A stretch of DNA of 64,000 nucleotides from the IMG/VR virus record IMGVR_UViG_3300046787_000508, positions 96,001 through 160,000 of that record; one strand, given 5' to 3'. The notes under the pieces were generated by a model that did not search any database, was not told the origin of the DNA, and worked only from the letters and a program-made list of their open reading frames with translations. Of this stretch, positions 61,153-64,000 are shown piece after piece; the stretch's first letter is position 1, and each line of letters begins with the position of its first letter. The stretch comes from a virus (lineage: Duplodnaviria > Caudoviricetes). The translations under genes and the position numbers were made by a program.

Positions 61153-61374
61153 ATGAAACCGTTCAAAAACAAAGTAAGTCAAACGACAACTCACAACAAA
61201 GAGTATAAAATAGTAACAAACGATAAATTCGACCCATATTGGGATGAAGGATATAATTTTTATCCGAGATATCGTAGAGGGTATAAGAACCCAAATAAAT
61301 GTATAATGAGTTTTCAAATTAGAATGTATCGAACTTGGAAACATAATAGAAAAACACAATGGAGAATAATGTAG
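61153..61374 (+). CDS. Hypothetical basic protein (73 aa)
   Basis: ORF inside the tRNA array; RTWKHNRKTQW motif. Confidence 0.55.
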   Translation: MKPFKNKVSQTTTHNKEYKIVTNDKFDPYWDEGYNFYPRYRRGYKNPNKCIMSFQIRMYRTWKHNRKTQWRIM

Positions 61375-61781
61375 AGGGATTTAAGTTAAAGGCCGAAGCT
61401 CAACTTATCCAAATCAGAGAGGAAAGAAAAAAGAGGGTAAAGGAGTATTGGGAAAATCTCCCCAAGATTGTTACTCCAAACGATGTCCCTGAATTACCAA
61501 GAGTAGATATTCAGGAATGGAAAGATTTCTACGTCCCAAAATTAATTGAGGCGGGAGCAATTGGTAAGGACGATTTGATTGAAGGTCAAATTTACATTGG
61601 TGAACATAGAAGAGCGAATGTTGCTAAATGGAACGGAAATGAATTCATTTACAATAGAGAGAAATTTGGAAACGTTTATGAAGATAAATGTAACCACTTT
61701 GAAGATGATGATGGGTTCGCTTTATTTGTTCCAATTAGATTTGGTACTGAGGAAGAATATAAGCAAAATTGTTTACAATAA
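61359..61781 (+). CDS. Hypothetical protein (140 aa)
   Basis: Clean ORF inside the tRNA array. Confidence 0.65.
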   Translation: MENNVEGFKLKAEAQLIQIREERKKRVKEYWENLPKIVTPNDVPELPRVDIQEWKDFYVPKLIEAGAIGKDDLIEGQIYIGEHRRANVAKWNGNEFIYNREKFGNVYEDKCNHFEDDDGFALFVPIRFGTEEEYKQNCLQ

Positions 61782-62150: not shown

Positions 62151-62969
62151 ATGGAGTATAAATGTCAATATTGTAATGAAATGTTTGTTTTTGAAAAAAA
62201 ACAACAAGCGGGAGCTCACGTAACTAACTGTTCTATGAATCCCAAAAAAAAATTAATGACCGAGAAAAGGTTATTAAGTAAGGACCAAGTAAAAATAGAT
62301 AGAGTATTAAATTGTGAAAGATGTAATCAGGAATATACAATTAATATAACCAACCATCTATTCTCAATTGGTGATTATAAAAAACATTGTTCAAGAAAAT
62401 GTGCAAACAGTAGAACACAAAAAGAAGAAACAAAAAATAAAATATCGGAATCGGTTAAAATGTGGTTTGAAAAACCTGAAGTTAAAATAAAATTATTAAA
62501 AGATAAATCAAAATATAGAAGAAATAGAAAATGTCCATCTTGTAATGATGATTTTTTAACATTAAAATCGTCAAAACAAAAATATTGTTCATTGAAATGT
62601 GCAGGTTCCGCCGGAGGTAAAAACTCTAAACAGGGGAAAAGGAGTTTAAATGAAATTATGTTTTTTGAATTATGTAGTGAACATTTTGAAGGTGTAATGT
62701 CAAACGAAAACGCGTTTAATGGTTGGGACGCTGATGTTATTCTACCAAATGAAAAAATTGCAGTTTTATGGAATGGAATTTGGCACTATAAAAAAATAAT
62801 GAAAAAACATTCATTAACCCAAGTTCAAAATAGGGATATGATTAAAATAAAGGAAATAAAAAAATTAGGGTTTAAACCATATATAATAAAAGATATGGGT
62901 TCACATAATCCAGAGTTTGTGAATGAACAATTTATTATTTTTAAAAAATATTTAGAAAATATTTTGTAA
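62151..62969 (+). mobile_element. Free-standing homing-type endonuclease (zinc-binding repeats plus Vsr/DUF559-like PD-(D/E)xK domain)
   Basis: CxxC...HxxxC, CxxC...CSxxC (twice), then WDADVILP..KIAVLWNGIWHY; ATATTTAT at 62125-62132; inserted between tRNAs. Confidence 0.7.
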
Positions 62970-63096: not shown

Positions 63097-63145
63097 CAAA
63101 ACATAAGATTAATTACCTTATGTATGGAAGGTTCGAAACTTCCGA

Positions 63146-63259
63146 TTGATTATGGTGTAAAGGTGCACGGCAGAACGGAGTAGGAATACGAAAAGCATTG
63201 AGCTTTCGTCGGTTCCGAAAGGGGAAACAGGATTATGGTTCGAATCCATTTTAGTCAAC
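63146..63259 (+). ncRNA. tRNA-like RNA (Gln-like body) with expanded anticodon region
   Basis: Acceptor TTGATTA/TAGTCAA, D arm GTGT-AAAGGT-GCAC, T arm ATGG-TTCGAAT-CCAT, with ~65 nt between the D and T arms. Confidence 0.55.
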
Positions 63260-63260
63260 T

Positions 63261-63388
63261 ATTGTAATTGACATAACGTCCTTAGCGGGAGAGCTTAGTA
63301 TATTACGGATAATCCTTCGGTAATTTACGATATGGTAACGTAGAAACAAGAGTAAGAGGATTTGAGTTCTACCTATGTTAGTTACAAT
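63261..63388 (+). ncRNA. Putative structured ncRNA closed by a 15-bp helix
   Basis: ATTGTAATTGACATA pairs with TATGTTAGTTACAAT (2 G-U); internal hairpins. Confidence 0.5.
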
Positions 63389-63392
63389 TTTT

Positions 63393-63465
63393 GGGATTGA
63401 GGTCAAACGGTTAAGATGTCGCCCTGTCACGGCGCACGGAGCGGGTTCAACTCCCGTCAGTCCCG
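63393..63465 (+). tRNA. trnD: tRNA-Asp(GUC)
   Basis: CGCC-CTGTCAC-GGCG arm; full cloverleaf. Confidence 0.93.
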
Positions 63466-63673
63466 CAAATGAGTAAGAGATACTCAATGATTTGGCATCG
63501 TTCGAAATAATGATGTAGTTGTTTCCTTCCACGATTTTATAGAGGGGGTCTCGGAATATGGTCGTAACAAAACTACCGAGTATGTTTGACGTTTTAAGCG
63601 GTAAGACGCGATGGGTTTTTCAATACGAAAAACTGTGAATATCTACCTCGAAATAATCTCATCGGGGACAATT

Positions 63674-63759: not shown

Positions 63760-64000
63760 CAATTCGACGACATTTAGGGTGATTTAGTATCTAGATTACT
63801 CTTTGTAACGATTACGGAAGTACACATTTATTTGTGTTAAACGTTAAGTTCGACAGGTAGAAACTAAGTGGTTCGGAATTTGACTGAAACAAGGTGACTT
63901 GGTCTTTGAAGTATTCAAACGATTTATCGTTGTAGGTACTGAATAACAAGAAGATAAACTAAGAACATCATCGTATGAAGTTTACCTAGAGAAATTTATA

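Follow-up and report, generated by a model that had tools for sequence, protein, structure and literature searches.

The plus strand of the window between positions 63261 and 63388 probably carries the gene for an undescribed, compact and tightly folded small RNA of about 125 nt, as judged by comparison of related sequences. The window is the whole stretch of DNA analysed here, 64,000 nt that correspond to bases 96001-160000 of a viral record (G000; 202,894 nt, rated 60% complete). Seventeen distinct copies of the element were collected in about nine lineages, comprising viral and metagenome contigs and two cultured Xanthomonas phages, X1 and BUDD. The carriers of this RNA family are large phages with big tRNA arrays.

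The first-pass annotation had described an element without open reading frames, closed by a 15-bp helix with two G-U pairs, and both parts of this description hold. Positions 63261-63275 pair with 63374-63388 at 15 of 15 positions, the two G-U pairs being U8-G121 and G10-U119, both of which become A-U in relatives. No plus-strand ORF of at least 25 aa lies inside the element, and a 93-aa frame on the minus strand is spurious, because the same frame continues through the neighbouring tRNA-Asp. By itself, this closing helix is within chance expectation for such an AT-rich window, in which 73 inverted repeats of at least 14 nt occur within 200 nt, and it is therefore little proof of function; it is the comparison with relatives, and not the helix alone, that points to a real RNA. 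The plus strand folds at -31.9 kcal/mol (z -2.65 against shuffles) and the minus strand no better than shuffles (z -0.47). The minimum-energy fold of the single sequence misses one helix that was later supported by the alignment.

Words of 8 and 9 nt that had been reported as shared with other positions of the array are due to chance: GAGTAAGAG recurs at 63471 in a plain hairpin, where a relative reads GAGTGAGAG, and GTAGAAAC occurs seven times in the window. The 203-kb record contains no paralog detectable by nhmmer at maximum sensitivity or by short-word blastn, and with a covariance model no second copy appeared either in the window itself or in 17 kb surrounding and following it.

Relatives and consensus fold

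Homologs were found by DNA patterns and confirmed with two covariance models, R1 and R2. Exact words led to close relatives in viral contigs (L010-L012 and L014), with about 90% identity, and to a distant copy, L015, which has the 17-mer GTCCTTAGCGGGAGAGC in common and differs in nearly every helix. Gapped two-block patterns combined with R1 and R2 yielded further copies in viral contigs (L055, L058, L059 and L060-L062) and in metagenomes (L021, L025, L026, L029, L030, L032, L033 and L035), while the cultured carriers were retrieved by blastn against GenBank phages. Across these homologs the element measures 112-140 nt. Carriers are records of about 200 kb and fragments with CheckV completeness of 11-60%, and each of the four carrier records searched whole holds one copy. 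The family is probably larger than the 17 sampled copies, because public collections were searched by exact patterns only. Seven related tRNA loci (L003-L009), reached through the neighbouring Pth2-like gene, contain no copy according to nhmmer and both covariance models, and the loci L013, L016-L020, L056, L057 and L063 proved to be chance matches.

Pattern searches for this element meet a particular trap. The word pair TAGCGGGAGAG ... AAGAGTAAGA, which spans 89 nt from first to last base, recurs in the FtsH genes of many bacteria, where it encodes the protein motifs VAGE and SRVRD (L022, L023, L028, L031, L037-L041, L044, L045 and L047-L052). All 10 matches of the two-block pattern in bacterial genomes were false, mostly FtsH coding sequence, and most of its metagenome matches were likewise FtsH coding sequence (VAGE...SRVRD) or other coding DNA.

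In the 17-sequence alignment (A4), the fold is a four-way junction formed by P1, P1a, P2a-P2 and P3, to which a 5-bp loop-loop pairing is added. Of its 45 pairs, 38 show changes on both sides, and 95.3% of the pairing is canonical; none of 500 shuffles reached the observed pairing, and shifted-register controls gave 38-45%. The nested helices were fitted by the covariance model and are thereby somewhat favoured; RNAalifold recovered P1, P1a, P2a, P2 and P3 independently, and our own pair counts agree. The first-pass annotation had proposed an unnamed small noncoding RNA and had named a lack of covariation as refuting it. What emerged is strong covariation, including a loop-loop pairing that it had missed, together with no match to an Rfam family.

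The closing helix P1 is 9-15 bp long across the alignment; all 15 of its pairs in the window show compensatory changes, 93% of cells are paired, and its 3′ strand ends 4 nt before tRNA-Asp. Inside it, the hairpin P1a (63279-63290) pairs UCCU with GGGA around the loop UAGC. The outer pair of P1a covaries (UA in 12 copies, CG in 2 and GC in 2), and the block CCUUAGCGGG (63280-63289) within it is the same in all lineages, bar one insertion in phage BUDD. P2a (63293-63295 with 63334-63336) has three pairs, two doubly changed and one an invariant C-G, with 98% of cells paired, and is lengthened to five Watson-Crick pairs (CUUUC/GGAAG) in X1 and BUDD. Its 3′ strand GGU continues into the junction AAC (63334-63339), a GUAAC-type block kept in most lineages. 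A five-pair, non-canonical version of P2a, resembling loop E (GAGAG/UGGUA), was also considered; only its inner pairs hold, with 49% of cells paired, and it was replaced by P1a and the three-pair P2a.

The P2 arm (63298-63328) consists of a 9-bp stem (63298-63306/63320-63328) capped by the invariant block CGGA/UCGG and a 7-nt loop (63310-63316). Compensatory changes affect 8 of its 11 pairs, and 94.5% of cells are paired. The P3 arm (63340-63372) has its stem at 63340-63345/63367-63372 and, in the window, a loop of 21 nt that contains, in order, CAAGAGUAAGA (63347-63357), the 3′ half of the loop-loop pairing (63358-63362) and UGAG (63363-63366). Across the alignment the P3 stem measures 6-7 bp and the loop about 20 nt; 7 of 7 pairs are compensatory, with 98% of cells paired, and the loop blocks are the same in all but one lineage. 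Among the inner stems listed in the first-pass annotation, TCC/GGA corresponds to P1a, ATTAC/GTAAT to part of P2 and GTAGAA/TTCTAC to P3. Only TTAC/GTAA had to be given up, as it conflicts with the covarying lower part of P2.

The loop-loop helix was left out of the covariance model used to build the alignment. It pairs AAUCC in the P2 loop (63311-63315) with GGAUU in the P3 loop (63358-63362); all five pairs are doubly changed, and 95% of cells are paired. Seven different complementary sequence pairs occupy the same columns: AAUCC:GGAUU in the window, AUGCC:GGCAU in L015 and L058, CGUUC:GAACG in L025, CAUUC:GAAUG in L032 and L060, CGUC:GACG in X1, CGCGC:GUGCG in L055, and GACUC:GAGUU in L059.

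The blocks between these variable helices, CCUUAGCGGG, CAAGAGUAAGA and UGAG, are the same in every lineage or in almost every one. The source record and phage X1 share about 14 proteins with 20-40% identity, yet their RNA blocks are identical. Such identity despite diverged proteins suggests strong constraint by a widely shared partner, or a recent horizontal spread of the RNA. A search for that partner through the proteins common to the source record, X1 and two other carrier records returned about 18 weak matches and no partner; the proteins common to the source record and X1 are taken as ordinary core genes.

Placement in tRNA arrays and in permuted tmRNA genes

In all carriers examined the element has the orientation of the tRNA genes, and the slots that it occupies run from the 3′ end of one tRNA to the 5′ end of another. 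A tRNA or tRNA-like RNA precedes it by 0-3 nt in six lineages (window, L014, L021, L025, L055 and L058), and a tRNA follows at 2-5 nt in four (window, L021, L033 and L060-L062). Larger gaps also occur, of 87-122 nt upstream in L059 and L060-L062 and of 92 nt downstream in L011, and the L015 copy, which abuts no tRNA, has sigma-70-like promoters on either side. Because of the tRNA-less L015 and the long gaps in L059-L062 and L011, tRNA punctuation cannot set both ends everywhere.

The earlier placement of the element between two tRNAs is correct on its downstream side, where tRNA-Asp (GUC) occupies 63393-63465 of the plus strand (Rfam tRNA model, 50.1 bits; missed by ARAGORN). The upstream neighbour (63146-63259, plus strand) is not an ordinary tRNA; it is a tRNA-like RNA without an anticodon arm, whose discriminator is 1 nt upstream of P1. 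Even close relatives differ in their neighbours: Thr and Asp in L021, Thr and a tRNA-like RNA in L014, a tRNA-like RNA and Asp in the window, and a tRNA-like RNA and Met in L011. Since the break between the element and its changing neighbours always falls at the ends of P1, the element moves as a module cut exactly at P1. The block 63097-63387, which comprises spacer, tRNA-like RNA and element, is 78% identical to L011 over 301 nt, and the element alone about 90%.

The arrays hold other features of interest. In the lineage of the window, the tRNA-like RNA without an anticodon arm accompanies the element on one side or the other, upstream in the window, L011 and L026 (at about 830-973 in the last) and downstream in L014 (about 677-950), L029, L030 and L035. 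Just upstream of the tRNA-like RNA in the window, the hairpin GGAAG-GTTCGAAA-CTTCC (63125-63144) resembles an orphan T-arm; it was also flagged by a terminator scan and is conserved in L026. Two array spacers, 63466-63673 (208 nt) and 63761-64000 (240 nt in the window, running past its end), have no tRNA-strand ORF of more than 31 aa and may be further RNA genes. The former starts with the hairpin TGAGTA-AGAGA-TACTCA, which is kept in L033; the remainder aligns poorly. GOLLD (RF02032, 191-296 bits) is found in element-bearing arrays at 960-1366 of L021, 2351-2812 of L062, where it lies 122 nt upstream of the element, and 4579-5040 of L060. In L058 (9478-9770, minus strand) the element has tRNA-Leu(UAG) on one side and a tRNA-Leu(CAA)-like sequence, called by neither ARAGORN nor Rfam, on the other; the acceptor stems of these two sequences nearly match, and each has a terminal CCA. 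This locus looks like a tandem duplicate with the element as spacer, an arrangement from which a permuted gene could arise. The three array ORFs at 61153-61374, 61359-61781 and 62151-62969 match no Pfam family; the 272-aa product of the last has a 31%-identical relative in the carrier record G003, and our guess is a mobile nuclease-type gene. ARAGORN counts 25 tRNAs in the whole source record, one with a CUA anticodon, which lies beyond the window at 161576-161648 of the record, is labelled Pyl and would read UAG.

A further such slot is found in the two cultured phages, where the element is exactly the intervening segment of a permuted tmRNA gene, flanked on one side by the acceptor-piece CCA and on the other by the coding-piece 5′ end. 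The tmRNA is recognized by RF04321 with 76.6 and 77.5 bits (cut-off 47), and ARAGORN also calls it as permuted. In X1 and BUDD, P1 has its first bases within the acceptor-piece CCA and stops 2 nt short of the coding piece, and so would stack on the tmRNA acceptor stem. The window copy sits instead between a tRNA-like RNA and tRNA-Asp, and no tmRNA was detected in the window by Rfam or in the whole record by ARAGORN. [quoted passage not shown]

The two-piece tmRNA loci lie at 2923-3251 of L053 (X1, OQ427096.1 about 121009-121337) and 2906-3235 of L054 (BUDD). No feature is annotated under the permuted tmRNA in the X1 record; the BUDD record has a 'hypothetical protein' CDS (USV41083.1) running over both acceptor piece and element, which is probably a mistaken annotation. 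The tag predicted by ARAGORN in both phages is VAANDADYSVARYA. Its ending is unusual for a tmRNA tag.

Comparison with known RNA families

The Rfam search that the first-pass annotation had proposed used the 4227 models of Rfam 15, with a score at or above the family gathering score as criterion, and gave no family over the element. Nor did a 3.6-kb search at E up to 10 give an Rfam match over it; a search with 171 nt returned only chance-level matches of at most 13 bits, and the GC-rich homologs matched nothing apart from the surrounding tmRNA. The element is thus undescribed in Rfam and in full-text literature searched for its conserved words, a scope outside which lie the 10,006 candidates of a 2023 viral RNA catalogue (PMC10690425).

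Theta ribozymes are likewise small, pseudoknotted and placed directly 3′ of phage tRNAs (PMC10879173), a position that the element shares in six lineages but not in L015, L059 or L060-L062. They are minimal HDV-like folds whose 5′ end pairs internally. The 5′ end of the element pairs with its 3′ end, with 15 of 15 pairs covarying, and not with an internal strand, and its only pseudoknot is the loop-loop pairing; we therefore rejected a theta or HDV-like assignment. In the window copy the 5′ end could also pair with an internal strand, an option that L015 does not offer, and no HDV-family match to the element appeared in the Rfam searches.

Closer in setting are species 1 and 2 of phage T4 (rnaC, 139 nt, and rnaD, 119 nt; NC_000866 70908-71171), which are also small non-tRNA genes within a tRNA cluster of a phage, read in the same direction as the tRNAs and immediately next to one of them. 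They are annotated as small, stable RNAs in that record. Homology was rejected: with filters off, the best R2 match in NC_000866 69500-73500 scored 11 bits (E 0.07) and lay outside both genes, and rnaC ends in a T-arm-like hairpin, which the element lacks. We know of no established function for the T4 RNAs.

GOLLD (RF02032) and ROOL are structured RNAs of phage tRNA arrays without known function, as is the element, but they are several hundred nucleotides long, whereas the element is much smaller and its fold differs. Neither covariance model matches over the element, and GOLLD is a separate neighbouring gene in L021 and L060/L062. The resemblance to the phi29-type pRNA (RF00044) is more detailed, since both RNAs measure about 120 nt and have an end-to-end helix, a multi-helix junction and two loops with covarying complementary bases. 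However, the pRNA model does not match the element, and phi29-like phages have genomes of about 20 kb, whereas carriers of the element are records of about 200 kb or large fragments with tRNA arrays. The element also has long invariant blocks, unlike pRNAs, in which none are known to us.

Further candidates were set aside. The word CCUUAGCGGGAGAG was likened to what we take to be the branch region of retron Ec86; 9 nt separate P1 from the G of this retron-like word, and a retron msr-msd was rejected, as the 203-kb record contains no reverse transcriptase and no RVT_1 (PF00078) match. Despite its four-way junction, the element is not called as a tRNA by ARAGORN or RF00005; its P1 is 13-15 bp long, and it has no T-loop or anticodon-loop signature. 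The words CCGUAGCG, AUGGUA and GAGAGUA are reminiscent of 5S rRNA; the topology differs and RF00001 does not match.

Release from tRNA precursors and alternative explanations

We consider it reasonably likely that the element is a stable small RNA, cut from tRNA or tmRNA precursors by tRNA-processing enzymes and then acting in trans. Its context favours release by tRNA-type processing, because it always lies on the tRNA strand, is mostly 0-5 nt from tRNA ends and forms the tmRNA spacer of X1 and BUDD; in these two phages, as the intervening segment, it would be removed when the two-piece tmRNA matures. The element would be transcribed within a tRNA precursor. RNase P, by cutting the 5′ end of the next tRNA or tmRNA piece, would free its 3′ side, and RNase Z, or RNase E with exonucleases, would act at the 3′ end of the preceding tRNA and so define its 5′ side. 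The nearly blunt P1 of 13-15 bp and the knotted fold may then guard against exonucleases, so that the RNA would accumulate as T4 species 1 and 2 do. It could act in trans through its invariant single-stranded blocks, which would most likely bind a component common to very different hosts and phages, perhaps part of the machinery of translation or tRNA maturation. A catalytic core, or a role in processing exerted in cis, would account for the invariant junction and loop blocks equally well.

The latter possibility, a clamp that acts in cis on processing or folding, is rather unlikely in our judgement. P1 would keep the flanking tRNAs together, the upstream one by its 3′ end and the downstream one by its 5′ end (in X1, the two halves of the tmRNA acceptor stem); the core would prevent misfolding of the neighbouring tRNA or time the cuts of RNase P and RNase Z, and the excised RNA would have no later role. 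The tight tRNA junctions, 0-5 nt on one or both sides, agree with such a clamp, as do the P1 of X1, reaching from within the CCA to 2 nt before the coding piece and stacked on the acceptor stem, and the L058 element, between two tRNA-Leu-like genes with matching acceptor stems. For this task, however, a plain hairpin would suffice, with no need for invariant blocks of 10-11 nt or a covarying loop-loop pairing. Most tRNA junctions of the same arrays lack the element, and the L015 copy has its own promoter-like site and no abutting tRNA.

Two further readings give the core an active part. It is unlikely, taking both together, that the invariant core is a catalytic or self-assembling machine and not a passive, bound RNA: in the catalytic version, it would found a new ribozyme class that releases tRNA or tmRNA ends, and in the assembly version, an exchangeable 5-nt loop code would join copies into rings or cages, as in pRNA, ROOL, GOLLD and manA RNAs.

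Considered separately as a rival, self-assembly, in which the 5-nt loops pair between molecules and form dimers, rings or cages on the model of phi29 pRNA, ROOL, GOLLD and manA RNAs, appears improbable, and it is compatible with the trans-acting RNA that we prefer. Covariation cannot separate intramolecular from intermolecular pairing, and the arms are unequal, with about 16 layers in P2a-P2 against about 6 pairs in P3, so that intramolecular pairing needs a bend; GOLLD is present in the same arrays in L021 and L060/L062. Phage-linked RNAs of less than 200 nt are also reported to multimerise through intermolecular kissing loops (bioRxiv 10.64898/2026.07.01.735769). On the other hand, the 11-nt conserved linker in the P3 loop and the internal loop of the long arm could bring the two loops together in a single molecule.

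A new class of self-cleaving ribozyme, which would cut at or next to its own 5′ end and free the 3′ end of the preceding tRNA or tmRNA, is decidedly improbable. It would do the work of theta (HDV-like) or hatchet ribozymes while folding differently. Small ribozymes typically have this size, a pseudoknot and unpaired, invariant blocks that separate covarying helices; P1 begins 0-3 nt past the tRNA discriminator or CCA in six lineages, and in X1 it takes up part of the CCA, so that ordinary trimming of the 3′ end would be hindered. In addition, phages use theta ribozymes to free tRNA ends (PMC10879173). Yet no Rfam ribozyme family matches, even with E allowed up to 10, the fold lacks an HDV-like topology, and several copies have no upstream tRNA (L015, L059 and L060-L062). 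Bacterial permuted tmRNAs mature without a ribozyme, and, to our knowledge, most tested conserved RNA motifs of comparable kind do not self-cleave.

That the element has no function as RNA, being a DNA-level inverted repeat, a decayed tRNA or the remnant of a mobile element, is hardly credible: inverted repeats of such size are common in the window and the position among tRNAs varies between relatives, but four internal helices and a pseudoknot covary, G-U pairs occur on one strand only, invariant blocks are kept between phages with proteins 20-40% identical, neither ARAGORN nor RF00005 gives a tRNA signal, and no record searched holds a second copy.

Stable RNAs of unexplained purpose, such as T4 species 1 and 2, GOLLD and ROOL, have long been known in phage tRNA clusters. 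To these the stable, processed RNA that we favour would add a small, sharply defined family, with a fold backed by many compensatory changes. Its presence in X1 and BUDD indicates that a split tmRNA gene can have a folded RNA as cargo in its discarded spacer, and since these two carriers are cultured phages with a laboratory host, production of the RNA, its excision, its binding and its need by the phage are directly answerable there. Phages of Bacteroidota-type hosts and of Xanthomonas have the same blocks even though the proteins they share are no more than 20-40% identical; this suggests that a molecular partner or a chemistry is conserved, or that the RNA has spread recently among phage lineages.
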